Assembly (NCBI GenBank): GCA_964016885.1
Contig: OZ024742.1
Span: 203,732,001-203,796,000, forward strand
Length of the DNA stretch: 64,000 nt
Source: Eledone cirrhosa
Lineage: Eukaryota
Direction of reading: 5' to 3'
The notes under the pieces were generated by a model, which was given only the letters and a program-made list of their open reading frames with translations, was not told the DNA's origin and ran no database searches. This document shows positions 4,442 to 62,994 of this stretch, piece by piece. The position numbers and the translations under genes were made by a program. Within the stretch, counting starts at the first letter, position 1. Each line of letters opens with the position of its first letter.

Positions 4442-5604
4442 ACATGCTATTAATTCATCTTTAGCGTTGTACAGTCATGTTAAAAGTTACATCTGGAGAG
4501 GATAAGTCATTCACTGATGTAATCATTTTGATAACTATTTAGTGGTGGGTGAATGTGGCGAAAATGGCCCGAGTAAACGGACTTTCTCTGTATATAAACC
4601 TGTAGGTTGAGGAATACAAAAACAGGGAAGACGGGAACACCTACGTGCTCCTGGTGTTGAGCGTTGTTCTATCAACGGGGTGTAAAACAACCCCGCAGTA
4701 ACGTTCCCTCCTATTGGGGATTTCGAATGTTAATTTTTTAATATATAGTTTATTGTTATTTATTAATGTTAAAGTTTATACGATTTCATGTAAAACACCC
4801 GCCGTCACGTCTTGTAATGTCCCATTTATTGTACACCCTTGTGGCAAATAAAGAAATATATCTATTTAGTGACGATCGGTTGGTTAATTTAATCTCAGAT
4901 ATATGTACATATGATGGCTGTTACACCTCTTGGAATTCTCTCATGGTAATCGAAATAGAAGTTAAACAAAAGCTGTTACTGTTACTTCTAGGCTGTTTTA
5001 ATCTGTTTCTTAGATTGAGTTGGTTGGACTGACTTGTTCAGCACATCTCCCTCGGTATTCACTGGGATAAAACGTTCGCAATTCTGTCCACCAGGACCAT
5101 GAGGAGGTAACATCTATCTGATATTTCTCAAAAGGTATGAGAGGATATAATTTGTAATGTGGGTCCTTCATCATTTGAATCCTGACAATTTATAGAACCA
5201 ATTTAATAGTAAGCTACAACCATTGGTTAAAATATAGAGCTATAGCAGAATATGATTATATAGTAATGATATTGGAATTTATTTTGTAAAGACAATTTAT
5301 AAGAGTTTACAAAGTTTAAACCATTTGGATTTATGTGGAAACTAGGATTGCCTCATCATTTAATAGCAAAAGTAGAATTGGTTTAGGACATTCTGTCTTT
5401 GATCTCCTTAATTGTTTTGATGGAAACAATAGAACAACTCAGTACACATCAATTATCGATATAACCACGCGTTCATCGATCAGTTATTTTTGTCTCTAGT
5501 GTATGCATTATAGTCATTAATCTAGGGTTGGAGATCTTCCAAAATGGAGATCAGTGAAAATACACTGAATCCACAATTAAAAACTTGTCCAATCTATACG
5601 GCTA

Positions 5605-11600: not shown

Positions 11601-14600
11601 CTACCATTGTCCCTGTCCCCCACACTACCACTGTCCCTGTCCCCCCACACTACCACTGTCCATGTGCCCACACTACCACAGTTCCTGCCCCCCACACTAC
11701 CACAGTCCCTGTCCCCCACTCTACCACTGTCCCTGTCCCCCACACTACCACTGTCCTGTCCCCTACACTACCACTGTCCCTGTCCCCCACACTACCACTG
11801 TCCCTATCCCCCACACTACCACTGTCCCTATCCCCCACACTACCACTGTCCCTGTCCCCCCACACTACCACTGTCCCTGTCCCCCGCAGTAGCATAGTCC
11901 CTGTCCCTCACACTACCACTGTCCCTTTCCCCTACACTACCACTGTCCCTGTCCCCCGCAGTAGCATAGTCCCTGTCCCCCCACACTACCACTGTCCCTG
12001 TCCCCCCACACCACCACTGTCCCTGTCCCCCCACACTACCACTGTCCCTGTCCCCCACACTACCATTGTCCCTGTCCCCCACACTACCACTGTCCCTGTT
12101 CCCCTACACTACCACTGTCCCTATGCCCCACACTACCACAGTCCCTGTCCCCCACACTACCACTGCCCCTGTCCCCATCACTACCACAGTCCCTGTCCCC
12201 CACACTACCACTGTCCCTGTCCCCCACACTACCACTGTCCCTGCCCCTCACACTACCACAGTCCCTGTCCCCCACACTACCACAATCCCTGTCCCCCACA
12301 CTACCACAATCCCTGTCCCCCACACTACCACTGTCCCTGTCCCCCACACTACCACCGTCCCTGTCCCCCCACACTACCACTGTCCCTGTCCCCACACTAC
12401 CACAGTCCCTGTCCCCCACACTACCACTGTCCCTGTCCCCCACACTACCATTATCCCTGTCCCCCCACACTACCACTGTCCCTGTCCCCCACACTAGCAC
12501 TGTCCCTGTCCCCCACACTACCACAGTCCCTGTCCCCCACACTACCACTGTCCCTGTCCCCCCACACTACCACTGTCCCTGCCCCCCACACTACCACTGT
12601 CCCTGTCCCCCACACTACCACTGTCCCCTACACTACCACAGTCCCTGCCCCCACACTACCACAGTCCCTGTCCCCCACACTACCACTGTCCCTGTCCCCC
12701 CACACTACCACTGTCCCTGTCCCCCACACTACCACTGTCCCTGTCCCCCACACTACCACTGTCCCTGTCCCCCACACTACCACTGTCCCTGTCTCCCACA
12801 CTACCTCAATCCCTGTCCCCCACACTACCACTGTCCCTGTCCCCCACACTACCACTGTCCCTGTCCCCCACACTACCACTGTCCCTGTCCCCCACACTAC
12901 CATTGTCCCTGTCCCCCACACTACCACTGTCCCTGTCCCCCACACTACCACTGCCCCTGTACCCCACACTACCACAATCCCTGTCCCCCACACTACCACT
13001 GTCCCTGTCCCCCACACTACCACTGCCCCTGTCCCCCACACTACCACAATCCCTGTCCCCCACACTACCACTGTCCCTGTCCCCCACACTACCACTGCCC
13101 CTGTACCCCACACTACCACTGTCCCTGTCATCCACACTACCACTGTCCTGTCATCCACACTACCACTGTCCCTGTCCCCCACACTACCACTGTCCCTGTC
13201 CCCCACACTACCACTGTCCCTGTCCCCCACACTACCACTGTCCCTGTCCCCCACACTACCACTGTCCCTGTCCCCCACACTACCACTGTCCCTGTCCCCC
13301 ACACTACCACAGTCCCTGTCCCCTACACTACCACTGTCCCTGTCCCCCACACTACCACTGTCCCTATCCCCCACACTACCACTGTCCCTGTCCCCCACAC
13401 TACCACTGTCCCTGTCCCCCACACTACCACTGTCCCTGTCCCCCACACTACCACTGTCCCTGTCCCCCACACTACCACTGTCCCTGTCCCCCGCACTAGC
13501 ATAGTCCCTGTCCCTCACACTACCACAGTCCCTGTCCCCCCACACTACCACTGTCCCTGTCCTCCACTCTACCACTGTCCCTGTCCCCTACACTACCACT
13601 GTCCCTGTCCCCTACACTACCACAGTCCCTGTCCCCCACACTACCACTGCCCCTGTCCCCCCACACTACCACCGTCCCTGTCCCCTACACTACCACTGTC
13701 CCTTTCCCCTACACTACCACTGTCCCTGTCCCCCCACACCACCACTGTCCCTGTCCCCCCACACTACCACTGCCCCTGTCTCCCACACTACCACCGTCCC
13801 TGTCCCCTACACTACCACTGTCCCTGTCCCCCACACTACCACAGTCCCTGTCCCCTACACTACCACTGTCCCTTTCCCCTACACTACCACTGTCCCTGTC
13901 CCCCCACACCACCACTGTCCCTGTCCCCCCATACTACCACTGTCCCTGTCCCCCACACTACCACTGTCCCTGTCCCCCGCACTACCACTGTCCCTGTCCC
14001 CCACACTACCACTGTCCCTGTCCCCCACACTACCACTGTCCCTGTTCCCCTACACTACCACTGTCCCTATGCCCCACACTACCACAGTCCCTGTCCCCCA
14101 CACTACCACTGCCCCTGTCCCCATCACTACCACAGTCCCTGTCCCCCACACTACCACTGTCCCTGTCCCCCACACTACCACTGTCCCTGTCCCCCACACT
14201 ACCACTGTCCCTGCCCCTCACACTACCACAGTCCCTGTCCCCCACACTACCACTGTCCCTGTCCCCCACACTACCACAATACCTGTCCCCCACACTACCA
14301 CTGTCCCTGTCCCCCACACTACCACTATCCCTGTCCCCCACACTACCACTGTCCCTGTCCCCCACACTACCACAGTCCCTGTCCCCCACACTACCACTGT
14401 CCCTGTCCTCCACACTACCACTGTCCCTGTCCCCCACACTACCACTGGCCCTATCCCACTGTCCCTGTCCCCCCACACTACCACTGTCCCTGTCCTCCAC
14501 ACTACCACTGTCCCTGTCCCTCACACTACCACTGTCCCTGTCCCCCACACTACCACTGTCCCTGTCCCCCACACTATCACTGTCCCTGTCCCACACACTA

Positions 14601-16873
14601 CCACTGTTCCTGTCCCTGTCCTCCACACTACCACTGTCCCTGTCCCCCCACACTACCACAGTCCCTGTCCCCCACACTACCACTGTCCCTGTCCTCCACA
14701 CTACCACTGTCCCTGTCCCCCACACTACCACTGTCCCTGTCCCTCACACTACCACTGTCCCTGTCCCCCACACTACCACAGTCCCTGTTCCCCACACTAC
14801 CACTGTCCCCGTCCTCCACACTACCACTGTTCCTGTCCCCCACACTATCACAGTCCCTGTCCCCCACACTACCACTGTCCCTGTCCTCCACACTACCACT
14901 GTCCCTGTCCCCCCACACTACCACAGTCCCTGTCCCCCACACTACCACTGTCCCTGTCCTCCACACTACCACTGTCCCTGTCCCCCACACTACCACAGTC
15001 CCTGTCCCCCACACTACCACTGTCCCTGTCCCCCACACTACCACTGTCCCTGCCCCTCACACTACCACAGTCCCTGTCCCCCACACTACCACTGTCCCTG
15101 TCCCCCACACTACCACAATCCCTGTCCCCCACACTACCACTGTCCCTGTCCCCCACACTACCACTATCCCTGTCCCCCACACTACCACTGTCCCTGTCCC
15201 CCACACTACCACAGTCCCTGTCCCCCACACTACCACTGTCCCTGTCCTCCACACTACCACTGTCCCTGTCCCCCACACTACCACTGGCCCTATCCCCCAC
15301 ACTACCACTGTCCCTGTCCCACACACTATCACTGTCCCTGTCCCACACACTACCACTGTCCCTGTCCCTGTCCTCCACACTACCACTGTCCCTGTCCCCC
15401 CACACTACCACAGTCCCTGTCCCCCACACTACCACTGTCCCTGTCCTCCACACTACCACTGTCCCTGTCCCCCACACTACCACTGTCCCTGTCCCTCACA
15501 CTACCACTGTCCCTGTCCCCCACACTACCACAGTCCATGTTCCCCACACTACCACTGTCCCTGTCCTCCACACTACCACTGTCCCTGTCCCCCACACTAC
15601 CATTGTCCCTGTCCCCCACAATACCACTGTTCCTGTCCTCCACACTACCACTGTCCCTGTCCTCCACACTACCACTGTCCTGTCCCCCACACTACCACTG
15701 TCCCTGTCCCCCCACACTACCACTGTCCCTGTCCCTCACACTACCACTGTCCCTGTCCCCCACACTACCACTGTCCCTGTCCCCCCACACTACCACTGTC
15801 CCTGTCCCCTACACTACCACTGTCCCTGTCCCCCCACGCCACCACTGTCCCTGTCCCCCCACACTACCACTGTCCCTGTCCCCCCACACTACCACTGTCC
15901 CTGTTCCCCACACTACCACTGTCCCTGTCCCTCACACTACCACAGTCCCTGTCCCTCACACTACCACTGTCCCTGTCCTCCACACTACCACTGTCCCTGT
16001 CCCTCACACTACCACAGTCCCTGTCCCTCACACTACCACTGTCCCTGTCCCCCACACTACCACTGTACCTGTCCCCCACACTACTACTGTCCCTGTCCCC
16101 CACACTACCACTGTCCCTGTCCCCCACACTACCAGTAGTCCCTGTCCCCCATACTACCACTTTCCCTTCCCCCACACTACTACTGTCCCTGTCCCCCACA
16201 CTACTACTGCCCTTGTCCCCCCACACTACCACTGTCCCTGTCCCCCACACTACTACTGTCCCTGTCCTCCCACTACCACTCTCCCTATCCCCCACACTAC
16301 CACTGTCCCTGTCCCCCACACTACCACTGTGCCTGTCCCCTACACTACCACTGTCCCTGTCCCCACACTACCACTGTGCCTCTCCCCTACACTACCACTG
16401 TCCCTATCCCCCACACTACCACTGTCCTTTTCCCCCACACTACCAGTGTCCCTATCCCCCACACTACCACTGTCCCTGTCCCCCACACTACCACTGTCCC
16501 TGTCCCCTACACTACCACAGTCCCTGTCCCCCACACTACCACTGTCCCTGTCCCCCACACTACCAGTGTCCCTGTCCCCCTCACTACCAGTGTCCCTGTC
16601 CCCCACACTACCACTGTCCCTGTCCCCCACACTACCACTGTCCCTGCCCCCCACACTGCCACTGTCCCTGTCCCCCACACTACCACTGTCCCTGTCCCCC
16701 ACACTACCACTGTCCCTGTCCCCCACACTACCACTGTCCCTGTCCCCCACACTACCACTGTCCTTGTCCCCCACACTACCACTGTCCCTGTCCCCCACAC
16801 TACCACTGTCCCTGTCCCCCACGCTACCACTGTCCTTGTCCCCCACACTACCACTGTCCCTGTCCCCCTCACT
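5605..16873. repeat. Giant GC-skewed minisatellite, 24-bp unit CCCACACTACCACTGTCCCTGTCC
   Basis: Direct tandem array of ~11.3 kb. The first ~370 bp use a related 25-27 bp unit (cacccacagtgtcactctccctgtctc). Frequent +/-1-2 bp indels and recurring variant blocks are present. Confidence 0.98.
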
Positions 16874-17009
16874 CCATATATAGGTCTTATACAGTTATTT
16901 CTGTATAAGAATTATTGTTTGTTTTCAATATTGCATCATACCTCCTTGTTCTTGTTACTTGAGAACATGTCCACTTAATTCAATCAAACAATAACTTAAA
17001 GACACTTGC

Positions 17010-26182: not shown

Positions 26183-26519
26183 CATAATACGTGTTTAAAA
26201 GAATATAGAGTAAGTTAGTACAAAGGTTGAATAAAATATATATAATACAATATAGTTTGTTAAAGGTAATACATTGCACATTTAAGTTTCATGCCAAGCA
26301 AAATGCTAAGCAATCATCAGGTAATAAACATAAACCTTCTACAAAAATATCCACGCAACGAATTTTCCGGTATTATATTCTGGGTTAAAATCTTTGTAAG
26401 ACCATCAAATATTTGAGACATATCGATATCATTTGAGACATATCGATATCATTCCTTGCTTAGTTAAAATGATTTTATATATATATATATAAGGAAAGCA
26501 CAAACGGGGAACAATCCCT

Positions 26520-27287: not shown

Positions 27288-27440
27288 TAACGAAGGAAGT
27301 GTGGTAAGGAACCAGATGGACCATAACGCACCAGAGTACTCAATATTTAGGGTAGTAGAGTGGGTAATAGGAATAGGAGTCCAGAAATAGTCATCGAAAC
27401 GGCTTGAGCTCTGCCGTCGGGGTCTTGAACTTTTCCTATA
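27288..27440. mobile_element. Ultra-short inverted insertion carrying the 3' half of an HHR
   Basis: gaaacggcttgagctctgccgtcggggtc plus an inverted tail. Homologues occur at 18975-19030, 34033-34085, 39522-39575, 54516-54707 and 60905-61035. Confidence 0.75.
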
Positions 27441-27451
27441 TCTATATCTAT

Positions 27452-27674
27452 AGTAATAATAATAAATTTGAAGACTAAAATCCAAAGAGGGCTCGATAAG
27501 GATAAATATATATCAAATATATAAGAACCGTAGAGCAAATATTTATTAAAATAACAGATTAAAGTTTAACCAAAGAATCGCTGCTTTCACCCTTAACGGG
27601 ATCTTCTGAAACTAGTTTCAGAAGATCCCATTAAGGGTGAAAGCAGGGATTTTTGCTTAAACTTTAATCTGTTA

Positions 27675-27682
<8 letters not shown>
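27452..27682. mobile_element. Palindromic 3'-end insertion of the Naiad family at 54722-57610
   Basis: Arms meet at aaact|agttt (27613/27614). The sequence matches 57541-57605 and 62631-62881. Confidence 0.85.
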
Positions 27683-29917: not shown

Positions 29918-29978
29918 TTTCATTTACCAGTGGTTTCTTAAAATCAAAAATATTTTGCTTTCAGTCATCAGAATGAAA
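29918..29978 (-). ncRNA. Type I hammerhead at the left end of the inverted Naiad
   Basis: UUUCAUU-CUGAUGA-stem II-GAAA-CC acu GG-UA-AAUGAAA. Confidence 0.75.
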
Positions 29979-34701: not shown

Positions 34702-36326
34702 GGGGATTTCTTTCTTCGTTTCTGTGCCTTTCCTTTCTTCTATCCTACGCCATTTTGTTTGTGTGTGGGTTGCGTGCTCAGTTTGCGCATGCGCCACATC
34801 CGGGTGTCTGTGTGTGTTTGTGTTCATTTTTCTATTTTTCTATTTATATTTTTTTTTATTTGTTTGTTTATTTATTTATTTATTGTTGGTTGGTTGTTTG
34901 TTCTATGTGTGTGTGTGTTTTCATTTTGTGTGTGTTTTCAATTGTAAGTTGTTTGTTCGATGTGTGTGTGTGTTTTCATTTTGTCCTTAATTGTAAGTTG
35001 TGATGTTGCTGTTCCACTCATATTTTCTATTTAATTTTGGTTTTAATTCTTTTATGCTTACTGCCTCTGTAATTTGCCTAAACATTGCGTCTTTCTTGTG
35101 TGTGGATTCTATTTTTATTTCTATGCTCTCTAATTTACCCCTGTGTTCTATCTTAGCATGTTGGTAGAGCACAGATGATTCTTTATTATCTTGGAGGTCT
35201 CGCCAGTGTTCATTTATTCGTTCCCCTATACTACGAGCTGTCTCACCTATGTACACTACATTTTTGTTTCTACATTGTCCTTCAGTACATCTTATGCTAT
35301 ATACTACATTTCTAGTTTTACAGTTAATATGGGGGCTTATTTTACAGGTTATACATTTCTTATCTATACATGAGGGTCTTTGGAACGGGTATGTCTTGCT
35401 AATAAGTGTTTTTACGGAGGTACCAGGTCTTTCTACTATCTTAATATTGAGATTATGTTTCTTTAGGGCCCTTCTAAATTTGTAGGCTAGTTCGCCTCTA
35501 GGGGTTGTATTTGTATCAATACAACCCCTAGAGGCGAACTAGCCTACAAATTTAGAAGGGCCCTAAAGAAACATAATCTCAATATTAAGATAGTAGAAAG
35601 ACCTGGTACCTCCGTAAAAACACTTATTAGCAAGACATACCCGTTCCAAAGACCCTCATGTATAGATAAGAAATGTATAACCTGTAAAATAAGCCCCCAT
35701 ATTAACTGTAAAACTAGAAATGTAGTATATAGCATAAGATGTACTGAAGGACAATGTAGAAACAAAAATGTAGTGTACATAGGTGAGACAGCTCGTAGTA
35801 TAGGGGAACGAATAAATGAACACTGGCGAGACCTCCAAGATAATAAAGAATCATCTGTGCTCTACCAACATGCTAAGATAGAACACAGGGGTAAATTAGA
35901 GAGCATAGAAATAAAAATAGAATCCACACACAAGAAAGACGCAATGTTTAGGCAAATTACAGAGGCAGTAAGCATAAAAGAATTAAAACCAAAATTAAAT
36001 AGAAAATATGAGTGGAACAGCAACATCACAACTTACAATTAAGGACAAAATGAAAACACACACACACATCGAACAAACAACTTACAATTGAAAACACACA
36101 CAAAATGAAAACACACACACACATAGAACAAACAACCAACCAACAATAAATAAATAAATAAACAAACAAATAAAAAAAATATAAATAGAAAAATAGAAAA
36201 ATGAACACAAACACACACAGACACCCGGATGTGGCGCATGCGCAAACTGAGCACGCAACCCACACACAAACAAAATGGCGTAGGATAGAAGAAAGGAAAG
36301 GCACAGAAACGAAGAAAGAAATCCCC

Positions 36327-36713: not shown

Positions 36714-36944
36714 TATACGCAACACAAAAAAATTATATCTAAAAATAAAAAAATGTTGGGTATGTGAAGGGTAAGGCAAAAAAATAGGGGCGAAAAAGAA
36801 GGGGGAAATAAATGACATAGGAAAAGGTTTAGATATAAGGGGAGATAAGGGAGAAAGAGAATACAAGAGTACAGAACGTGGATTCAGCAGGTAAAAAAAC
36901 CGTAGTGGAAGTAAAGAGCAGAAAAGGAGTTCAAGGTGGTTGAG

Positions 36945-38340
36945 TTATCATAGGAATGTCAATCCAGTTATAGATCAGATGTGATTTCAGATGAGGACAA
37001 CATCTGAAGATCTCGGTCTTTGAGTTCAGGCAAGCAGAAGTGGCTTTCAATTTAGCAAAATCCTATATTTTTCTGTGGCACACAAAGAACAATTCTTTGT
37101 GCCCCTTTGGTACTCCCTCGAAAAGTCTAAAATAGATCAATAGATAGAGTACGGGATGTTTTTATCCTTGAATTCCCACACCTTACTTGCGAGGGCCGTT
37201 GTTGTGCGTTTATCGGAGTGCTTAAAAGAAGCGACATGTGCATAAAACCTGGTTTTAAACCTGTCCTGGGTCATGCCAACATATCGCTCACTCCTGGCTG
37301 GCTGGTTGTTGATTAAAGGTGTCACTTTAGCTTCATAAACAACAGACTTGGTGTTACATTTGCCCTGCAATGGGCATTCATCCGGCTTCCTGCAACTGCA
37401 TCCTGGATTTGTTCTCGTATGATTTGAATTAGTGATCTTGGACTTCATTGATGGGCAACAAGAGTAACTGATATTAACTACATTTCTATTAAATATCTTA
37501 TAATATCTATGATTAGGAGGAAAATGTTTATCTAAGAGTTCAAGGAATTTCCTCCCTACATTAGTTTTGAGAGTTAGAGAGAAGGGGGGGTGTAAACCAA
37601 ATAATTTTCCTTTTCCTATTATTGTGGTTAGTTTTAGGGGGGGGGGAGTAGGTAAATAATAAATTTGTTCTGTAAAACCGCTGTTTTTAAGGGCTTTATT
37701 ATAATAAGGGGCGGCTTTATTAAAAATGTCAATAGACGAAGATAAGGTAGAAATACTACGGCTAATGTTGGGAATAAGATTTTTAAAAACTATAGGGGGA
37801 TGGCAAGACTCTTTGTGTATATACCTAAGATTTTCATTAGGTTTCTGATAAGGTTTAAAAGAGGCGGTAAGTAGATCAAGATTAATGTCAAGAAAGTTAG
37901 CATTAGTAAGGTTCGTATCTATAGTGATTTTAAGGTTAAGATTAGCAAAAGTATTGATTATATCTTTACGGAATTTATCAAGGTTATGGCCGTTGGTGGT
38001 ATGAGAAACTGCAAATCCGTCATCACGGTATAAACCGATATTATGGGAAGGAAATTTCTCTTTGAGGGTGTGGAGAAGGAATAATCCTACTAAGTCACAC
38101 ACATCCGCACTGTCATATGAACCCATTGCAACATCAAAAGAGTTTTCAGGGTTTGACTTTTTAACCCAAATATTTTCATTAGTAAAGAGTAAAGTGTTTC
38201 TAGCATGAAAGATAATATCTTCTTCTAATTTAGAAATATTAATGAAGGGTCTTGCAAACTCTAAGGCATTAGTTAATAAGGAAACAGTAATAGAGGGGTT
38301 AAAATCAATAATATCAAATTGGGTAAATCTACACTTATTT
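36945..38340 (-). pseudogene. Naiad-type PLE RT/GIY-YIG ORF, 5'-truncated and frameshifted
   Basis: QFDIIDFNPSI, FDVAMGSYDSA, GLYRDDG, the CSCRKPDECPLQGKC Zn-finger, YVGMTQDRFKTRFYAH, and C-terminal CSLC/LNSKTEIFRCCPH in shifted frames. Confidence 0.9.
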
Positions 38341-39342
38341 TGCCCATCAATGAAGTCCAAGATCACTAATTCAAATCATACGAGAACAAATCCAGGATGC
38401 AGTTGCAGGAAGCCGGATGAATGCCCATTGCAGGGCAAATTTAACACCAAATCTGTTGTTTGTGAGGCTAAAGTGACACCTTTAATCAACAACCAGCCAG
38501 CCAGGAGTGAGCGATATGTTGGCATGACCCAGGACAGGTTTAAAACCAGGTTTTATGCACATGACGCTTCTTTTAAGCACTACGATAAACGAACAACGGC
38601 CCTCGCAAGTAAAGTGTGGGAATTCAAAGATAAAAACATCCCGTACTCTATCGATTGGTCTATTTTAGACCATTTGAGGGAGTAACGAAGGGGCACAAAG
38701 AACTGTTCTTTGTGTACCACAGAAAAATATAGGATTTTGCTAAATTGAAAGCCACTTCTGCTTGCCTGAACTCAAAGACCGAGATCTTCAGATGTTGTCC
38801 TCATCTGAAATCACATCTGATCTGTAACTGGATTGACATTCCTATGATAATTCAACCACCTTGAACTCCTTTTCTGCTCTTAACTTCCACTACGGTTTTT
38901 TTACCTGCTGAATCCATGTTCTGTACTCTTGTATTCTCTTTCTCCCTTATCTCCCCTTATATTTAAACCTTTTCCTATGTCATTTATTTCCCCCCTCTTT
39001 TTCGCCCCTGTTTTTTTGCGTTACCCTTCACATACCAAAATTTTTTTATTTTTAGATATTATTTTTTTTTGTGTTGCGTATATGTATGTATGTGTGTATA
39101 TATGTATATGTATGTATGTGTGTATATATGTATACATATATATATATATGTATATATATATGTATATATATATATGTGTATGCATATGTGTGTGTATATG
39201 TATATGTGTATGTATATGTGTGTGTATGTATGTTTATATCTATCTGTATGTATATGTATATGTATATATAATCGTATATATTATATATTTCTGTTGTATT
39301 TGTGCGCGTGTGTGTATATATTTATATGTATGTGTGTATATA

Positions 39343-40174: not shown

Positions 40175-40735
40175 TAAACAAATAATGAACAAACAATTCC
40201 TTATATTAAACAAAAAAAGTTCACTATTTAACGATCGTTTCTAGGGCATATATGTGTTATAATTGGTATGCATATTTAACAGATCTATGTACAAAATTAT
40301 ACAAAATTATACAAATTATCAAGATTAAATATACATACCTAACTCATATATACGCCGTCTTCAGAAATAATGTATTATAAAATATTATAAAATAAAATAT
40401 TTCTGAAGACGGCGTATATATGAGTTAGGTATGTATATTTAATCTTGATAATTTGTATAATTTTGTATAATTTTGTACATAGATCTGTTAAATATGCATA
40501 CCAATTATAACACATATATGCCCTAGAAACGATCGTTAAATAGTGAACTTTTTTTGTTTAATATAAGGAATTGTTTGTTCATTATTTGTTTAATATTTTA
40601 TCTTGACTCTGTATACCATTTATCTTTCACCGAAAGTGGATTTTCATTACATCTCTTCTTTCCATAATATCCGGAATACATTGAGTTCTTCATACGGATT
40701 GGACACTACCGTAAACTCTTGGTAGATTTATCTAC
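40166..40735. mobile_element. Palindromic PLE-terminal insertion with HHRs
   Basis: ~200-bp near-perfect arms at 40167-40369 and 40398-40600, with a 135-bp tail on the plus arm. It is absent from the left arm of the large duplication. Confidence 0.85.
40398..40542 (+). ncRNA. Type I hammerhead with ~100-nt stem II insert (mirror copy at 40225-40369)
   Basis: UAUUU-CUGAAGA-c-GGCGUAUAU...AUAUAUGCC-cua-GAAA-CGAUCG-UU-AAAUA. Confidence 0.65.
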
Positions 40736-41709: not shown

Positions 41710-41770
41710 TTTAATTCTGATGATTGAAAGCAACATTTTTTGGCTTTTAAGAAACCACTGGTAAATGAAA
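41710..41770 (+). ncRNA. Type I hammerhead at the right end of the inverted Naiad
   Basis: CUGAUGA-UUGAAAGC/GCUUUUAA-GAAA-CC acu GG-UA-AAU. Confidence 0.75.
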
Positions 41771-44377: not shown

Positions 44378-47300
44378 CAGTTGCATTTATCTTGCTTTAT
44401 GTTCATACGAGTTATCACCAAGTCACAACCAGTGACCTCAAGAGACAACAAGGTCCGCCATATTCAAGGAAGAACATACATATTCACACATGCATCTTTA
44501 GTGTTTAGACTTGTGATGTACTTATATTGACAGAATCTTCCTTAGTATATGGGCAGTTCCCATTAGTACTATCTTTTGTATTTCTCCTATACGCGGGTTT
44601 CCTGGGATTTGCGATAAGTAATCATTAGGCCCCTTAGGTATCATTCCCAGAGCGCCTACAACCACTGGTATTGTTTTAGTTCTCAATTTCCACATTTTTC
44701 CAATTTCTATCTCCAGGTCCTTATACTTGCTCAGTTTTTCAAATGTTTTTATAGATACATTCTTGTCTATTGGAACAGACATATCAATTAGCAGGCATAC
44801 CCTCTTTTGAAAGTCTTTCAATATTATATCAAGTCTGTTTGCATCTATTTTTCGGTCTGTTTGGATGCTAAAGTTCCACAAGATTGAAATGTGATCTTTT
44901 TCAAGTATGGGAGGTGGTTGATGCTCCCACCAATTCTTTTGATGGGGCAGGTCAAAATGCTTACACATTATCCAATGTATGTATTGTGCAGCTCTGTCAT
45001 GCATGTTTAGGTATTCGGTTGGAGCTATAGGACTGCACATTGAAATTATATGGTCAATGGTCTCTGGTTGTTTTTTGCATACACGGCATAATGGGCTGCA
45101 TCCATTTTTTATTATGTTGGCTTGGTAATTTTTTGTTGGCAGACACTGATCTTGTGCCGATATAATCAGTCCTTCAGTCTCCGATTTCAGTCCAGAGGAT
45201 GCCAACCACTGATGGGTTAAAGTTTTGTCAACATCAGGATTGTTAGCTCGCTCTGGGTATTTTCCATACAGAGGCTTTTCTTGCCATTTCTTAGCGAGTT
45301 TCTGTAGCAGTTCTTTCTTTGCGGTTACTTTTACCTGCTTTGCTTTTTCTGTGTTTTCCATTTCAGCAGTAAATGGGACTTCTGAAATTTGTAGTCCATT
45401 ACTGTATCTTTGTGCATCTTTTGTAATGGAATATGATCTTTTGATGCTTTCGTGTTTCAAAACGAGTTTGATCATCCAATCATGTGATTCCCTTAGATAT
45501 GTAGATAATCCAATTGTTGCAGTTTTCAACGCAATGTCTAACTGGATTAACCCACGTCCTCCTTCTTTCCTAGGGAGATATATTCTATCTATATCTGCCT
45601 TAGGGTGATGCATTCTGTGCATGGTTAAGAATTTTCGAATTTTTGTATCGAGCCTACGGATCTCTGTGCTTGACCAGTTGATGACATTGTAACTGTAGGT
45701 TACTACTGGTATGGCAAGCGTCTTTATGGCATCGATCCTATTCCTTGCATTCAATTCCGTTCTTAAGATTGCTCTTACTCTGCGGTAACATTCCTTCTTT
45801 ATCCTTTCCCTCATTGTCGAGTGCTTGATTCCGTCTCCTTCACAAACACCTAGATATTTGTAAGTTTTTTTCTTGATCAAGTTCTCTTATCACGTTCCCC
45901 CGATCAAGATTAATGTCTGAACTCTTCAGCAGCTTTCCTCTGGTGAACGTTGCTTTGGCGCATTTATCTAGTCCAAACTCCATTTTAATGTCATCACTGA
46001 ACTGCTTCACAGTGGATAATAGCCCTTGCAATTGTTCATCATTTTTTGCAAATAGTTTCAGGTCATCCATGTAGATCAGGTGATTAATGGTTTTGTCATA
46101 GACTTTATATCCATGTTTTGTTTCATTGAGCATTTTACTTAATGGTATAAGTACGATGCAGAATAAAAGCGGTGATAAAGAGTCACCCTGAAAAATTCCA
46201 CAATTAATATTAACTTCTCCAGCTTCCAGTGATTTTGTTTCACTATTCAAAAGGAGTGTCGTTTTCCATGTCTTCATACTGAATGACAAAAACCTCATGA
46301 CAACGGGGGATATTTTGAAAATCTCTAAACATTTTTCAATCCAACTGTGTGGCAGACTATCAAATGCTTTTTTATAATCTATCCAAGCAATCGATAGATT
46401 TTTGTGTCTATTATGACAATCTTCCAGTATCATTTTGTTAACCAGAAGCTGATCCTTACAGCCATATGAGCCTCGTTTACACCCTTTCTGCTCAATGGGA
46501 AATAGGTCATTTGTTATCAGGTGGTCATATGTGTATTCAGTTAGGACTGATGTTAAAATTTTATACATTGTGGTCAAGCAAGTTATCGGTCTGTAATTTT
46601 TTGGATTGTTTGTCTCATCATTCTTCGGAAGCAGGAATGTAATGCCGTTAATTAGCCATGAAGGTATCTTTTCTGGCTCCTTAACTATTTCATTGTAAAG
46701 TTGGGCTAACAGCTCATGAGACTCTGTGAAGTTTTGTATTTTGTCTTTTCCTGGGGATTTCCATTTGCTGGTTTTTCTTAGAGCCAAGCGCAACTGTTCA
46801 ACTGTTATATTTTCCCATGTTTGTTCCTCAGGTGAGCTGTATCTTTCATTTGTCTGTCTATCCATGGGGCATGTATGTTATGAACTTTTTCTTCGGCCCA
46901 GATCTTTTCCCAGAATTCTTGCACTTCCTCCTTGGGTGGTATTGATTTAGCAGTTATTGTTGACTTACCAATTTTTCTGTAGAAGTTTCTTTGGTTGTTT
47001 TTGAACATATTATTGTCCTTATAGAATCTAGATCGTTTTTCAAAGCGCCTTATACGAGCAGCTTTGGCCGACACTTTTTGCTTGATTATTTCTATCAGCA
47101 TGTCTATGTCACATGTTGATTTTATACTGTACTTTTTTTTCAATTTTCTAAGTTTAGTTTGTTTAACATGTTCACCTACTTTATAGTTTGTTAAAATTTC
47201 TATGTCAGATCGGAGAAGGTTTATTTGGCGATTGATGTTCTCTTGCCAAGTAGATTTCTTGTGGGAATTCCTTTGTTTTTTCATCTTCACTCCACATAAG

Positions 47301-48029
47301 TGAGTGGTGACTTTAGCCGATGCATAATAGAGATGATTTAAATCAGTAATGTTTAGTTTGTTTGTGATGATAATGTTTTTGAGAATTATGTTAGTCTTGT
47401 GTATTATCTTTTGGTTCTGTTTGGAGTTCTGGATCTTAGGGAGGGTGTCTCGTTGCCCCATGTCAGATTCTTTCATTTTCATCCATTCGATCATAATTTC
47501 ATCCTTCAAGTTGGCAAGTTCATTCTCATTCATTTCTTTATCATTTACGATCTCATTATTTTCATTTGGAGTTTCATCCTGAGCATGCACTCCCTCCACT
47601 TTTTCGATCCTTTCTTTAATTTGTTCTGTTGCCAGTGATTCCGCCCCAACCCTGGGATTCGAAGTGTTACAGTTTACCTCGTTTTCACTGACACATGTTT
47701 CATTTTCCCTTCGCTGACTTTGTGCTAATAGCTTGATCTGATCAATTTCTATATCAGTTAGTATCTTTTTTCTTACAATATTTCTTCGTATACTGGCTAG
47801 TTTGTTACTGTCAATATAGCCTCTGTTTTCGGGATGTTTCTTTTTCCAGTTGATATATGTCTGTTCTGTATTCGATGTATTTGATGGGTAGTACATGGCA
47901 GTGTAGAAAGCCTCACGGACTTCTTTATTATCTTCCCTTGACCATTTTTCTCTCTTTTTCTTTGGATTTCTTGGTGGTGAGCATGGAGGGCCAACAGTAG
48001 GAGTATTCCGGCTCCGAAGTGATGGGAAG
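44378..48029 (-). mobile_element. Near full-length R4/Dong-clade LINE (RT plus RLE endonuclease), frameshifted
   Basis: REKWSREDN N-terminus; YRPITCL, WIDYKKAFDS, GIFQGDSLSP, YMDDLKL; CRVC..ETIDHIISMC..HD; RLDIIL..LIDMSVP. Flanked by (TAA)n on both sides. Confidence 0.93.
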
Positions 48030-48088
<59 letters not shown>

Positions 48089-48758
48089 TCTTTGAGTCTC
48101 AGTCATTGATGTTAGTTAACTGGAAAGTTTGTTAAAATGAATATCAAGTCACTACCTGCAGCCTCAGATATTGAGGACGTATCGGAGGGTTCTTGCTGTT
48201 CCCAGCAAGCATGCCTTTTGGAGCGTTCCAAAAAGCGTGAAGGGGCCAATTTTCTTTAAGCATCCCTGGAAACTTTTTGAGATAGTCCCTAGTGCGCCTA
48301 TGACAATCGGGATCACCCTGATTTCATGGCAGTTCCAAATCCTTTTTACCTCCCACTTTAAGTCCTGGTATCGGTTAATTTTCTCCCTCTCCTTCTCTTG
48401 CACTCTCGTGTCGAATGGGCAGGCGACATCCACAATCAGGCACGATCTTTTTTCTTTGTCCAAAACCACCAGGTCAGGTCTATTGTGTTCCAGTTTCTTG
48501 TCCGTCTGTATCCTAAAATCCCACAGCACCTTCACCTGATCGTTTTCTATCACCACCTCTGGCTTATGCTCATACCACTTCTCAGAATGTGGTAAATTGT
48601 TTACTTTGCATAGGTGCCAGTCGATCACCCTGCCCATCACATCATGTCTCCAGCCCTTATAGTGAGTCTGGGCTAGGTGTTTACACTCGGATACAATGTG
48701 AGCCACAGTCTCCTCTCTCTCTCCACAGATCCTGTACAGTGGGCTAGCCTCCTCCTTG
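48089..48758 (-). mobile_element. 5'-truncated second R4/Dong-family LINE
   Basis: CRIC..ETVAHIVSEC..RHD, NRPDLVV..IVDVACP, K..RYQDL, PIVIGALG. Flanked by (TAA)n and (TAA/CAA)n. Confidence 0.9.
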
Positions 48759-48791
48759 TAAATTATTATTATTATTATTATTGTTATTATT

Positions 48792-48846
<55 letters not shown>

Positions 48847-49815
48847 TTGTTGTTGTTGTTGTTGTATTTAGGTCGGTAGTATTGAAGTATTTCTCCGCAT
48901 GTTTGTGGTGTAATTTGCTCTCTTTTTGTGGATTAGGAGCTGATTGGTTTTAATTTATATGTGGCCGGTAAGGGTTAAATCAGAACCTTTTTGAAAATTA
49001 CAACAAAAACATTTGTTTTGAACAACAAGGCGGATGAACCAATGCCGTCCGCAGAATGTAACAGCCCAAGTGAAAAAAAAAAGAAAAAAGAACTAACATC
49101 AAGGCACAAGGCACGCACATACGAAAACGACTTCCCAGCATTGAAATAAACGGACAATCTCGCGACGTCTACTGCTACCACTACCAGTACAACACAAAAG
49201 GTCCAACACAGGCTCAAAACAACAACATCACCACCAGTACCACTAAAACAACAACAACACCAATGACAAGAACTGCAATACGAACGGCAAAAAAACACAT
49301 TCGCTGCTAGAGCTGCTAAAACTACTGAACTCTTCCAAATGAGCATTGCACAGAAGGACATACGTTTAGCATAAGCAGCCAAATTGATCACAATATAAAT
49401 AGGCATGGGTCAACGTTAGCGTTCCGCCCGAGGTGTTTAAAAGCTACGAAGAGAAAACGTTAATTTACAGATGTATTTCGACAAAATAAAGAAAAGAAAG
49501 AATCTAGTGCCACAATATAACGTGAGAACAGTTCTCAAAGGAATCATACTGGACATTCATCATGTTGCAAAAGCCAAACAGTTTGGGAACATTTCGATGC
49601 TCTTCGAGAGTAAAGCCCATGCCATAAAACACTGTGGTTCCCTGCAAAACAGACCAATATATATTGGTCCCATGTTATTTGGAAAGAAAAAGAATTTAAG
49701 TCGGCATTTTCGGAATCCCACCAAAGTTAGACATCTGAAGGAAGCTGGAGAGTAACAAAACCCACCTGGATGTAAAAAGAACCCAGGGTTAAAACTGGTT
49801 TGGGATCAGTTTATA

Positions 49816-54515: not shown

Positions 54516-54707
54516 TAGGAAAAGGTATGACCCGACGGCAGAGCTCAAGCCGTTTCGACGGCTATTTCAGGACAAAAATAACCGTCGAAACGGCTTGAGC
54601 TCTGCCGTCGAGGTCATACCATTTCCTATTACCCACTCTACTACCCTAAGTATTGAGTACTCTTGTGCGTTATGGTCCATCTGGTTCCTTACCACAATTA
54701 TTCGTTA
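54516..54707. mobile_element. Palindromic half-HHR mini-insertion
   Basis: ~50-bp inverted arms around 54575 plus a 78-bp tail. Same family as 27288-27440. Confidence 0.8.
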
Positions 54708-55853
54708 TATATATATATATATAACCGTAAAACTAATCGGTGCGTCATCAATGAAATCAACGATGCTGGGTTTAAAATCACCTCTGATCTCAACATCCTG
54801 GACCGGACCGAACCTCTCGACCCTATTTCTCCCCACTTTACCCTGAAGGATCACAAATCCAATTTTGGGAACAACCCCTCTGATTTAGGTAGACTTAGTA
54901 AAGGATTCTTGATAGAATTATACCAGAAATTATAAGTTTGGCCCCTCTTGCACTGTGGAACAATTCTTTCGCGGTGATTGATTGGTTCAACGGCTTATGC
55001 AACAAGGAGGATTGCCGTTTTATCCAATTCGACATCAACAATTACTACTCCTCCATCACTTTACCACTTTTCCTTAGAGCTATCAATTTCGCTAAAACAC
55101 TCACAGTGGTTAAGGATTTCGAAGTTGATGTCATCCTCAATGCCCGTAAGTCGGTGATTAATTTCGACGACTCTATTTGGATTAAAACATCCAATAGTAC
55201 CCCATTCGACGTGAGTATGGGCGCCAGCGATTCTGCGGAGGTTACTGATCTTATCGGCTTTTCCTTCTTTTCTCTATCAAGGAAGAATTCCCCAACGCGG
55301 GCGGTGGTTTGTACCGTGATGATGGTCTTTTGACCATGACTAAGTGCGGACCTCGTGCTTGCGACAGGTTCAGAAAAGAACTCACAGCCTTCTTTAAAGG
55401 CTTCAACCTCTCTATACAGGTTGAGGCCAATCTCTCGGTCGTTAATTACCTCGACGTTACCCTCAATTTATCGAATGGGTTGTATTACCCGTATAGAAAG
55501 CCGAATGATACGCTTAATTACATAAGTAAGCATTCCAACCATCCTGCCAGCATAACCAAGAACCTGGTAAGAAACGTTTCGTTGAGGCTGTTCCGTCTAT
55601 CTACTAACGAGCATATTTTCAACGACCATTCCACATATTACAATGAAGCTCTTGCTCGCAGTGGATTTGTCGATAAGGTAGCATATACTGAGTACGAAAA
55701 TAGACCTAGAAGAAATAGATCCCGTCGCATTTGTTGGTATAACCCACCATATAATATGGAGGTGGCCACACCATTAGCTAAGATCTTTCTTTCCCTTATT
55801 ACGAAGCATTTTCCCCTCCACATAAATATAGTAAAAATTTTAATAGAAATACT

Positions 55854-56038
55854 TGTTTCTACTTTAGGCACAAGGCCAGCAATTACACAGTGCATTACTG
55901 GTACTTTATTTTATCGACCCCGTAAGGATGAAAGGCAAAGTCAACCTCGACGGGATTTGAACTCAGATCGTAAAGGGACGTAACTATGCTTGAAAGCATG
56001 GCGTCCGACCCTCTATGGATACTGCCAATCCACCGCCC
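55854..56038 (-). mobile_element. Full-length SINE family A with 16-bp TSD
   Basis: TSD ttttaatagaaatact at 55838-55853 and 56039-56054. A and B boxes are present. Confidence 0.92.
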
Positions 56039-57541
56039 TTTTAATAGAAATACTATTAACATTTCTTACTCTACGACTCCTAACCTTGCACATAACATTA
56101 CAGCTTCAAATTTAGCTAAACTAAAACCGTAGGAACACGTGCAACCCTGTAGTTAGTACTAACTGTAATTGTAGGAATCGGGTTGATTGCCCCCTATCCG
56201 GGAAATGCCTCTCTAGTAACATTGTCTACAAATGTAAGGTTGAAACACCCACGTCCCGTAGGGCCTACATAGGGTTAAACGCCAACAGATTCAAGCAGCG
56301 TCTTTACATGCATACCCATTCTTTTCGTTACCCTCTAAGAAGGAATATGACGTCACTTTCAGCTTATATCTGGAGTCTAAAAGACAACGACACCCAATAT
56401 AAGTTACACTGGGAGATCCTAGCTAGGGCTAGATCGTATAACGGAAATAAAAGACCATGTGACCTCTGCGCCGCTGAGGCCCTGGAAATATTCTACGCCA
56501 CAGACCACATTCTAACAAAAAATATGAGGCAATTTCGGCTTGTAAACATAAATTGCACAAAACATTCCTGTACTACAGCCCCACGTTATACCCTAACTGA
56601 TAGTATGATCTAAACGTGGATATTTTACGTCTTGATGTGGTAGCTAAGTATTTGTTTTGTTTATAGCATTACTTATTTGCATAGGTACGTATATATTACC
56701 TCTATGTTTTGTGAAGGTACGTATACTTTCTCGTACGTATATTTGATTGTATATGTTATGGCGTATAATTTTTTATATATTCTGGTACATATGGTTTGGT
56801 TATGTGTACACGGGAGTTTTGCGTCTGTGTGAGTATGCAGGTTCGTACGTATGTTGGGTGTGTGTATATGTGTACTTCATGTTTTGGTTGACTTACGTCT
56901 CCGAACATTTGTGTATTTACATGTAGGTATGTGTGTGCGCTTGTTATATACCTATTTATTTATTTATATACGTTTATTTAATTATTTATTTATTTGTATA
57001 CACGCACACACACACCTATTTATATGTGAGTGGTTTTCTATACCTATGGCAAGTGTTTTCGCGTATGCTTGTGTATGTACGTATTTGCATGCGTGTATGT
57101 ATTTATTTAATTTCTATTACCTCTGTATTGTATTTTATTTACTTTATTCTTACCTCTGAAGCGGAGATTCATTCGGTTTCCTAGTTAGAATTTTAGTCTA
57201 CGACTTCAGCTATACCATTTACGTGGTTTTGTCTTTGCGTGCAATTGTTCTCCACGCTCCACATACGACGTATTATCTTCGTTTTTTTCGTTCATTGCCA
57301 GAGAACGTCTCTATGAACCACCTAAGAGAACATTAGTCTACGACTTCTTTTATACAATAAACGTGGTTCTGTCTTTGCGCGTAATTGTTTTTCACCGCTC
57401 CTATTAATGACGTATTATATTCGTTTTTTCCCGTTCTTTGCCAGGGAACGTTTCCACGAACCAAAGTATCGTCTTCCTGTCTTCCTCCGGTTGCAACGTT
57501 TTTTGAAATATCCACTTCTGCGTTTACAGATTGACTTTGTT

Positions 57542-57592
57542 AGTTTCAGAAGATCCCGTTAAGGGTGAAAGCAGCGATTCTTTGCTTAAACT
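57542..57592 (+). ncRNA. Type I hammerhead-like motif with CAGAAGA (U4A) core
   Basis: AGUUU-CAGAAGA-u-CCC guuaa GGG-u-GAAA-GCAG cgauucu UUGC-UU-AAACU. Confidence 0.65.
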
Positions 57593-57694
57593 TTAATCTG
57601 TTAATTTAGTATATATATATATATATATACACATATCTTAAAAAATAAAACTACTGTGTTATTTTTCCCTAGACAGTATTCTTGCGTCCGCACG

Positions 57695-57748: not shown

Positions 57749-59217
57749 ATACTTTGGGAGGGTCATGTTGCCAATGAGAAACACACGCACCAGTTGCTTT
57801 CACTTCAATTTATTGTAATACATTTATAAATTTAGGAATTTATAAATTTCCGGTTGGTTGGTTCCACAACCAGATGGTTGTTTATATATTGTCAAAGTTC
57901 TTTCGTCACACATTATGTGACCTCTTCAGCGACTGGGGATTACTTTCTTTGTTTTTGTGCCTCTCCTTTGTTCTGTCCTACGCCATCTTGTTTCTGTGTG
58001 TGTGTTGTGTGGTTAGTCTGCGCATGCGCCACATCCGGGTGTCTGTGTGTGTTTATATTCGTTTATTTATTTGTTTGTTTACATGTTACAGGTTGGTTGT
58101 TTATTCTATGTGCGTGTGTGTTTTCATTTTGTCCTTAATTGTAAGTTGTGATGTTGCTGTTCCACTCATGTTTTCTATTTAACTTTGGTTGTAATTCTTT
58201 TATGTTTATTGTCTCTGTGATTTGTCTAAACATTGCGTCTTTTCTGTGTGTAGATTCTATTTTTATTTCTATGTTCTCTAATTTACCCTTATGTTCTATT
58301 TTAGCATGTTGGTAGAGTACAGATGATTCTTTACTATCTTGAAGGTCTTGCCAGTGTTCATTTATCCGTTCACCTACACTACGAGCTGTCTCACCTATGT
58401 ACACTATATTTTTGTCTCTACATTGTCCTTCAGTACATCTTATGCTATATACTACATTTCTAGTTTTACAGTTAATATGGGGGCTTAATTTACAGATTAT
58501 ACATTTCTTATCTATAGAGGGGGGTCTTTGAAAAGGGTATGTCTTGCTAATAAGTGTTTTTACGGAGGTACCTGGTCTTTCTACTATCTTAATTTAGTTT
58601 ATGTTTATCTAGAGCCCTTCTAAATTTGTAAGCTAATTCACCTCTAGGGGTTGTATCGATGAACATTACACTCTGGTTTTTATTGCTATCATACCATGTG
58701 TTTATTCTAATAGCCTTATTCCTAGTTCTTTCTATTCTATTCCAAAATTTGCTCCTATACAAGGGGCAGGTCCCATTTGTGTCATTATTTACCATTTTTT
58801 CCCATTTGGTTCTGGCTCCTGTATACACTCTGATTTTATCTCTCTGATTGTAACCAGAGAACTGCATACGGTGGATGAAGTGTTGTATGTGTCTCTCTAG
58901 TCCTTCGGGGTTGCACATGCGGGACACGTTTCTCATCACCCGTACCAAATCCGCAATCAGTATGTTGATTTTGGTATGGTCTGAAACAGGTAAGTTTCGG
59001 GGGATCAGATATTTGGAAGTCATGGGTTTGGCATAATGGGAATGGAGGATTTGTTTTTTGAGGATTTGAGAACAGTCAGGAATTAGAGAAAAACACAATG
59101 GAAAGCATCCAGCAAATAGCTAACTCCATCCACCAGAGTATTAGAGTTACTATAGACTACCCAAGTAAACACCCGAACCATCGATTACCTGTACTAGACA
59201 CAGAGCTCTGGTTAGAT

Positions 59218-59325: not shown

Positions 59326-60192
59326 CAGCGTGCGGACGCAAGAATACTGTCTAGGGAAAAATAACACAGTAGTTTTATTTTTTAAGATATGTTTATCAAA
59401 CTTGAGTCAGTTTGACTTCATAACTTGTTCTTTCGATCTCACTCGATACACCCGCCATTGGCTTTGATGACGGCCTCGGAACCGGCTACAGGCCTTCGTC
59501 ACTGTCCCCCGACTTAGGCCCCTAAAGGCACTTGTGATCCTGGCCTTCAGATCGTCTTTCGTATTGCAGCTAGATCTGTTGGTGTCTCGTTCCACTGAAC
59601 CCCACACAAAGAAGTCAAGGGGGTTGCAGTCAGGCGAGCTGGGAGGCCAGATGTCAGGTGAAGTGTGGTCGACGAAGTTCTCTGACAGCCAGGATAGGGT
59701 CTTTCGGCTGGTATGACAGGGCGCTGAGTCTTGCTGCCACACGTACGGTCTACCTGCAGCTACCTGGTCGATCCAGGGCTTTACTACCTTGCTCAGAACG
59801 CGGATGCAGCCATCGGTGTTCAGCTTGAGGCCCTCAGGGAAGAAATGAGGTGACATGACGTCACTTTGATTGCTGACGACACCTAAGACCAATGTTGTCG
59901 CTGGAAACTTTGTTTGCATGACTCTGGGCACGTCTTTGGATGAGACAGCGAGCCACCTGTTGTTCCGGGAGTTTCTGAAATTTCCTTATTTGTCCTCCCG
60001 GCGCAGATTCCAAGAAGAACTCAGTGTCTCTTCCACAAATCTGGAGGTTCAAAATTATTCATAATCAATTATTCTGAAAATAAATAATGAAAATATAGTC
60101 ACTGTTTTTATGAAGACAAGAGTGACAACGGAAGTAAAAAAAAATTGCATAAAATTAGCAGTTCAGAATTGCGAACAAATATCGTCCACACC

Positions 60193-62586: not shown

Positions 62587-62994
<408 letters not shown>

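Follow-up and report, generated by a model that had tools for sequence, protein, structure and literature searches.

A U4A hammerhead core conserved across a large family of Hydra-type Penelope-like elements in Eledone cirrhosa: a candidate slow ribozyme

The window analyzed here is a 64,000-nucleotide stretch of Eledone cirrhosa DNA (assembly GCA_964016885.1, contig OZ024742.1, positions 203,732,001 to 203,796,000, forward strand), and the positions given below are those of the window. It contains a Hydra-type Penelope-like element (PLE) whose 3' end has the layout of a hammerhead ribozyme at 57542-57592, except that the core motif CUGA reads CAGA, that is, A replaces U at core position 4 (U4A). 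The question that this locus raises is whether a hammerhead without its U-turn uridine is still a ribozyme or is kept for another reason. A sequence-only reading of the window had named three candidate functions, namely, an active core variant, an attenuated ribozyme, and a hammerhead fold retained for binding the reverse transcriptase (RT), and these were the right candidates to weigh. The best explanation, to which we give about an even chance on sequence evidence, is that the U4A hammerhead self-cleaves at a reduced rate, thereby probably releasing and closing a unit-length RNA circle that would be the template for long copies. The features of the hammerhead are as follows.

57542..57592, plus strand: type I hammerhead, stems I-III and core (from layout and fold prediction)
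57526..57534, plus strand: distal helix I, 5' strand (pair probability 0.99; needs the upstream sequence of the repeat)
57535..57541, plus strand: bulge of 7 nt between distal and proximal helix I, variable among subfamilies and ending in initiator-like pyrimidines
57542, plus strand: +1, the base that opens stem I; 5' end that predominates among short copies and presumed capped transcription start
57542-46/57588-92, plus strand: proximal stem I
57547-53, plus strand: core with A at 57548
57548, plus strand: core position 4, A replacing U (98.8% of 26,926 genomic matches)
Stem II, plus strand: 3 bp closed by U.U
57567-69, plus strand: G12-A14
57570-74/57582-86, plus strand: stem III
57570..57586, plus strand: stem-loop III with a near-palindromic loop, so that a dimer helix is possible between two copies (from duplex energy)
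57587, plus strand: U17
57587..57588, plus strand: predicted scissile bond, 3' of the CUU triplet (from the hammerhead layout)
57593..57601, plus strand: distal helix I, 3' strand

The type I layout with the stems and core first described stands, but stem I as then described was incomplete because a further 9-bp distal helix (57526-34/57593-601) had been missed. All the other conserved residues, namely, C3, G5, A6, G8, A9, G12, A13, A14, the A15.1-U16.1 pair and H17, are present, and U4 alone is replaced. Exact matches to the 16-mer containing CAGA are found in the window at 27598-27613(-), 27614(+), 57542(+), 62688-62703(-) and 62720(+), and 0.46 matches would be expected by chance with up to three mismatches allowed. 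Thus, all five window copies that had been reported to carry CAGA at the hammerhead U-turn do so, with the correction that each of the two inverted pairs is a single insertion event.

Genome-wide, a pattern that allowed any base at position 4 gave 26,926 matches, 26,598 of which (98.8%) have A, 137 have T and 191 have C or G. The frequency of T is at the level of random substitution. CAGA therefore predominates over CUGA among the genomic copies, and the proposal that it was fixed in the mobilized master, and did not arise by decay, is borne out by this count together with the subfamilies S1-S5 described below. A CUGA subfamily among the young copies was considered and rejected, the T matches being on mixed subfamily backgrounds or belonging to an old relative (30 of the 137 inspected). 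With a looser pattern 924 matches with C or T were obtained, and most of the 30 that were inspected are fold-back junctions at the TTC-A-GAA palindrome around position 4. No other letter at 57548 reached 5% in the contigs of four runs (three studies, three organisms), a comparison in which two of the runs gave just 44 and 1 contigs and in which contigs lose rare variants.

The history of the change can be read from the old relative, S0. In its 25 retained copies, which have a median divergence of 16% from their majority, position 4 is T in 16, C in 5, A in 2 and missing in 2. S0 was found by a search with a diverged copy, 30 of the 40 matches being fetched, and since this query had T there is a mild bias; five sequences that were intermediate or poorly aligned (L249, L252-L254 and L256) were excluded, and all the subfamily sets were hand-picked. 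The majorities of S1 to S5 (12, 8, 6, 17 and 21 copies, with divergences of 12.5, 7, 9, 5 and 2.5%, respectively) all have A at position 4. In a tree that was midpoint-rooted only, support was 100/100 for S0, 96/88 for S1 and 99/94 for S4 plus S5. Since S0 is older and the core is CTGA in all 26 published Hydra rows, U is the ancestral and A the derived state on this sequence comparison. The S0 copies with C at position 4 (L233, L234, L236, L244 and L247) are either transitions or a CCGA (U4C) subfamily that preceded U4A.

After U4A the rest of the core and all the helices were conserved, as shown by the subfamily majorities. Among S1-S5 there are 32 changes at 52 loop, bulge and flank positions as against 2 changes at 57 positions in the stems, core and distal helix (p=8e-9), and both of the latter are at CpG sites and leave a G.U pair. 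None of the 11 core positions changed (p=0.002), nor did the cleavage-site nucleotide. Because the first search pattern fixed part of the motif, the 5' halves of S1-S3 were rebuilt from 3'-anchored copies; these sets, which are free of this bias, led to identical majorities, A being at position 4 in 21/22, 12/12 and 8/8 aligned copies. Distal helix I is formed in all six subfamily majorities and its outer end shows one compensatory C-G/U-A exchange between S1 and S2/S3. The constraint reaches +42 to +60, which is past a core-promoter window, and the length of loop II changed. Stem III gained a G.U pair on the U4A branch, and no second core change accompanied U4A. In all six sets loop II ends in A while its other bases turn over, and this constant A presumably makes the contact between loop II and helix I.

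The ends of the genomic copies bear on the RNA from which they were made. The base before 57542 is not T in 3,867 of the 26,598 CAGA matches (14.5%), and in 2,071 of these it is G. Breaks at +2 amount to 1,445 of 28,043 (5.2%) against a substitution baseline of 1.2%. About 24 of 30 inspected loci with a break at +1 are true junctions, and several are head-to-head pairs in which each member has an extra G. When 96 copies were anchored downstream of the cut site, about 37 of them proved to have their ends in the interval +47 to +1, and the interval -7 to -37 contained none. The +1 base lies in a site that we take to be initiator-like and that is a perfect TCAGT in S0-S3. From the dominant 5' end at 57542, the extra G and the initiator-like site we infer that the transcript is capped and begins with the first base of stem I. 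Such an untemplated G is a known trace of cap copying (PMC9341517). The 3' ends of the copies are at about +70 or about +160, and in 30 of 30 head-to-head pairs there is one of each, that is, exactly one member is tailed; two RT start sites have been shown for a PLE of Anolis (PMC11167929). No leader is common to the upstream partners, and trans-splicing at +1/+2 was rejected on this ground. Separately, six of the 96 anchored copies (L025, L026, L084, L420, L439 and L450) have a common 5' end near -46, preceded in several of them by the same few bases, and they are possibly a short non-autonomous subfamily or mark a second start.

Long copies behave differently from short ones. In 359 matches the hammerhead reads on into the 5' untranslated region (UTR), and the base at -1 is other than T in only three of them, all plain substitutions that continue upstream. 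Thus, 0/359 long copies stop at +1 compared to 14.5% overall (Fisher p=2e-20). All 30 tandem loci inspected extend from 24 to more than 900 nt upstream, and 15 of 30 copies that bear the ATG end at +146 to +198, near the second RT start site, as is expected after one lap. Since none of the 359 long copies stops at +1, the long complementary DNAs would derive from a template that has no end there, most simply a circle made by the ribozyme.

Some tandem copies require separate mention. The upstream flank shared by some of them was considered as 5' transduction and turned out to be passive duplication, and a three-unit array was not counted as evidence for rolling-circle synthesis because it sits in the passively duplicated set. 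In L046, L134, L462, L467, L469, L476, L470 and L488 there are tandem units of 286-531 nt that have internal deletions and carry two or three CAGA hammerheads; they resemble PLE-derived non-LTR (long terminal repeat) retrozymes, and one such insertion has been passively duplicated inside a larger repeat.

Based on these findings we propose the following sequence of events. The transcript would start, capped, inside helix I, leaving the 5' hammerhead without its distal helix and the 3' hammerhead complete, and reverse transcription would start about 70 or about 160 nt downstream of +1. Uncleaved capped RNA would be translated, and on it the RT would run off at the cap, giving mini-copies that carry an additional G. 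Both repeats would occasionally be cleaved, probably with the aid of a dimer helix or of protein; ligation would then give the circle, and RT that passes the ligated junction of this circle would produce the long and tandem copies. If cutting is slow, enough capped RNA would be spared for translation and the circle would stay closed while it is copied, and we propose that U4A is tolerated because a low rate of cleavage suffices. In its full form, namely, that a natural hammerhead is functional in vivo although it lacks the U-turn uridine and drives a PLE family of 40,000 copies via an RNA circle, that the copy ends record both templates, and that the start within helix I cripples the 5' ribozyme while the 3' one is complete, the proposal is tentative and falls a little short of an even chance. 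Parts of it have precedents in that core variants can remain functional when supported by tertiary contacts (PMC3088659), cleavage by a PLE hammerhead requires the protein of the element (PMC11167929), the RNA circle is a published hypothesis for PLE ribozymes (PMC4209133), and RNAs cut by hammerheads are circularized in animals (PMC7229834).

Several observations weigh against slow cleavage through a circle. The sequence-only reading had looked to the position after 57587 for 5' ends of RNA; genomic copies have no excess of ends there (795/39,443 as against 743 at the control position +50, p=0.19), the dominant end being 57542. About 18 of the 30 inspected at the cut site are substitutions, and there is no hotspot of copy ends there. 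This test is not diagnostic of cutting because the second PLE-type family of the window, which has a canonical CUGA hammerhead (41717 and 29971), likewise has no excess, with 2-3 of 100 ends at its own cut site; about 9 of 30 of its short copies end near their own start. By the same token there is no sign at the DNA level that the U4A core cuts more slowly than the canonical core. The subfamily majorities rest on 6-25 copies each, with their order set by hand and S2 and S3 unresolved. A single insertion accounts, through passive duplication, for about 20 of the first 100 tandem matches, and these do not change the 0/359 result. Because the RT switches templates frequently, to judge from copies that are inverted or carry internal deletions, the place of the circle could be taken by strand transfer or by RNA that reads through. 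As for catalysis itself, Ambros and Flores reportedly found in 1998 that U4A is inactive in a viroid hammerhead. In a saturation scan single mutants of CUGA had low activity, and no double mutant in this motif was rescuing except the C3-G8 swap (PMC9901934). U4 contacts the A6-N7 phosphate, and U4C is the only working natural variant of this position named in the part of PMC3088659 used here. The slowness that we propose follows from this biochemistry of the CUGA mutants and the U4 contact and not from the DNA-level data. In addition, a PLE protein carried out insertion in vitro without need for hammerhead cleavage (PMC11167929).

Fold prediction adds to these difficulties. The three-way junction has -5.5 kcal/mol as against -8.8 kcal/mol for the minimum-energy fold, with a probability of 7e-4, and it is not the minimum-energy fold with or without the distal helix; predicted stem I pairing is lower with A4 (0.011 vs 0.032). 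The shuffle z-score of the hammerhead fold is -0.03. All the hammerhead pairs are nevertheless formable and conserved, and the predicted dimer duplex via loop III has -12.9 kcal/mol as against -3.6 for the lone hairpin region. An off-state hairpin favored by A4 was considered and is predicted only weakly (0.01-0.23). None of 141 Rfam matches at E<=1 was to a hammerhead family, and the canonical-core motifs of the window were likewise missed. Because PLE hammerheads have been reported to be poorly active in vitro and to depend on dimers or protein (PMC4209133, PMC11167929), the weak predicted fold neither confirms nor removes the hammerhead.

The explanations that compete with slow cleavage differ in what U4A did to the ribozyme. 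If it abolished catalysis, the hammerhead-shaped fold could have been kept as a site bound by protein for starting or switching templates, and long copies would arise by strand transfer from one repeat to the other or by read-through. We regard this as unlikely, though it is the strongest of the competing explanations: besides the weakness of CUGA mutants (PMC9901934) and the normal insertion in vitro of cleavage-dead PLE RNA (PMC11167929), the scissile bond is intact across every counted copy, both RT start sites are just downstream of the hammerhead, the single tailed member in 30/30 head-to-head pairs points to tight protein-directed initiation, template switching is frequent, and Naiads multiply without hammerheads (PMC8557442). 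However, with strand transfer at the cap a second pass should fail at least as often as the first, yet 0/359 long copies stop at +1 against 14.5%, and read-through RNA from upstream promoters alone cannot keep two repeats identical through five subfamilies. The unchanged cleavage-site nucleotide and other core residues also speak for a ribozyme, though a bound fold could require the same residues. At the other extreme, U4A may have been fully compensated by the distal helix and a loop contact, by the dimer helix or by protein, so that cleavage is no slower than in the canonical relatives. The copy-end statistics, which are like those of the canonical-core family, the far larger size of the U4A family (39,443 vs 1,511 anchor matches) and the G.U pair gained in stem III would fit this, but there is no second core change alongside U4A, the saturation scan found no rescuing double mutant other than the C3-G8 swap (PMC9901934) and U4 contacts the A6-N7 phosphate (PMC3088659); we consider full compensation improbable.

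Two further explanations were weighed. A dead relic could be held solely through its overlap with an internal promoter, U4A being neutral or a promoter change. The initiator-like site at +1 with perfect TCAGT in S0-S3 agrees with this, and the internal promoter of Penelope is in the same repeat (PMC2377424), but a promoter would hardly explain why the paired segments -16 to -8 and +41 to +60 are conserved while the intervening loops change, why loop II could change in length, or why a pair in distal helix I was exchanged in a compensatory manner, and we think it quite improbable. That U4A was fixed as a new 3' splice acceptor, with a pyrimidine run plus CAG redirecting RNA processing, is very improbable. 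The pyrimidine tract does end in CAG at 57547-57549 and the Penelope intron ends at helix I (PMC4209133); against this, only 2/96 anchored copies end at +9, neither joined to sense sequence of the element, and there is no donor where a seamless back-splice would require one. A slowly cleaving hammerhead remains our preferred explanation.

The element had been labeled as Naiad-type, and this label is wrong. The intact open reading frame (ORF) of 708 aa, found in the copy in L421, is a single ORF with RT first and GIY-YIG at its C terminus by inspection, and by its layout and motifs, inspected against PMC8557442, the element is a Hydra-type PLE. In Naiads the endonuclease is N-terminal and canonical hammerheads are lacking (PMC8557442). 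There is no N-terminal GIY-YIG here, and in place of the Naiad change of DKG to DKA the motif reads DKT, which was found in 5/5 translations; RWR (conservative for RWK) together with DKT was found in 4/5. The CxCX5C linker and the CxxC and CxH around the conserved E and N are present by inspection, CCHH is absent, and the insertions are in (TA)n, all as in Hydra elements. The canonical hammerhead that accompanies Hydra elements is missing from the young family and present in most copies of the older relative. No Pfam match was obtained for any of the four proteins tried. The unit is about 3.26 kb with a long 3' UTR; a start-codon motif gave 779 matches, with the ATG 204-206 nt after the first hammerhead base, and one exact 24-mer puts the family at 39,443 copies or more in the 3.0-Gb genome. 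The window copy, at 54721-55853 plus 56039-57385, is 92-93% identical to the intact copy. The copies of the element in the window are listed below.

54721..57610, plus strand: 5'-truncated Hydra-type PLE copy in (TA)n, with frameshifts and stops that disrupt the ORF
54721..55853, plus strand: RT part, from about codon 139 of the intact ORF
56125..56613, plus strand: CxCX5C linker and C-terminal GIY-YIG, with CxxC before the conserved E and CxH after N in the next frame
27450..27613, minus strand: mini-copy with a 90-nt tail, beginning at +1
27614..27680, plus strand: mini-copy without tail, beginning at +1, head-to-head partner of 27450..27613
62629..62709, minus strand: short copy without tail, extending a few bases upstream of +1
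62714..62883, plus strand: short copy with tail, head-to-head partner of 62629..62709

The ORF is interrupted at 55854-56038 by the insertion of an unrelated repeat of about 185 bp, with a 15-bp target duplication (55839-55853/56040-56054). A palindromic short repeat at 54522-54615 and 27385-27435 adjoins two of the insertions and is seen again beside further copies, L074 and L120. The second PLE-type family with the canonical CUGA hammerhead is at 41710-41765 (+) and 29925-29978 (-) and has 1,511 anchor matches; an additional G is present on some of the short copies of this family, whose ends are about 40 nt upstream of the ribozyme. A decayed Hydra-style hammerhead with a canonical core and U.U closing stem II is at 26270-26330 (-), and a second Hydra-type ORF is on the minus strand at 36900-38800 (37137-38375) with an inverted piece of itself. 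The long inverted repeat at 40327-40440 has a core-like word, CUGAAGA, in its arms and is probably a head-to-head pair of another PLE end. The rest of the window includes a minisatellite array of about 11 kb at 5500-16950, with spurious long reading frames in several frames, and, from translations read by eye, fragments of a non-LTR retrotransposon, further PLE pieces bearing GIY-YIG and a DDE transposase fragment at 44522-48949, 34987-36042, 58135-59119 and 59407-59985.

The role of hammerheads in PLEs is an open question (PMC8557442, PMC11167929), and the capped ends on mini-copies as against none on 359 long copies are genomic evidence that bears on the proposed circular intermediate. This split of the copy ends also gives exact coordinates at which a cap, a cut and a circle junction would be expected. 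U4 is regarded as invariant, and the descriptors used for PLE hammerheads are based on the canonical core, so families such as this one are easily missed. With its datable history and its constraint intact, the U4A core offers a test of the extent to which an active site can be rescued by tertiary contacts, dimers or protein; should the core turn out to be dead, what these data record would instead be the conversion of a ribozyme into a fold for binding protein. In the literature searched no U4A hammerhead family was reported; a survey of PLE hammerhead variants (Lunse et al. 2017) may list one.

Among the known systems the Hydra clade (Craig et al. 2021, PMC8557442) is like this element in having RT followed by GIY-YIG, RWR for RWK, DKT, CxCX5C, CxxC/CxH and (TA)n targets; its hammerheads, too, are of type I, and stem II is closed by U.U in most rows of its File S2. 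It differs in that 26/26 Hydra rows of File S2 have CTGA, although these were found with a canonical-core descriptor, whereas the core here is CAGA, and in that loop III is 1-3 nt there and 7 nt in this element, with its unit of about 3.26 kb; two motifs of the U4A hammerhead are absent from its supplement. Naiad PLEs share the (TA)n targets, the inverted and tandem insertions and the tens of thousands of copies, but have the N-terminal endonuclease and lack the canonical hammerhead, and this element has neither trait. The PLE hammerheads of Cervera and de la Pena (2014, PMC4209133) are likewise of type I with a short helix I, a palindromic helix III fit for dimers, a weak predicted monomer fold, a location in terminal repeats and a circle model; the sole core variant in the text drawn on is U3-A8, whereas here the U-turn uridine is replaced family-wide. 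PAc, a Poseidon element of Anolis (Frangieh et al. 2024, PMC11167929), also has two internal RT starts, tailed and untailed copies and an adjacent hammerhead, but its canonical core overlaps the start codon while the ATG here is well downstream of +1. Finally, the natural core variants of Perreault et al. (2011, PMC3088659) include the U10.1.U11.1 mismatch, tertiary contacts that offset core changes and a U4C viroid variant that works in vivo. U4A is unnamed in the part of that work used here, and their variants are rare singles, in contrast to a family of 40,000 copies with a datable history.
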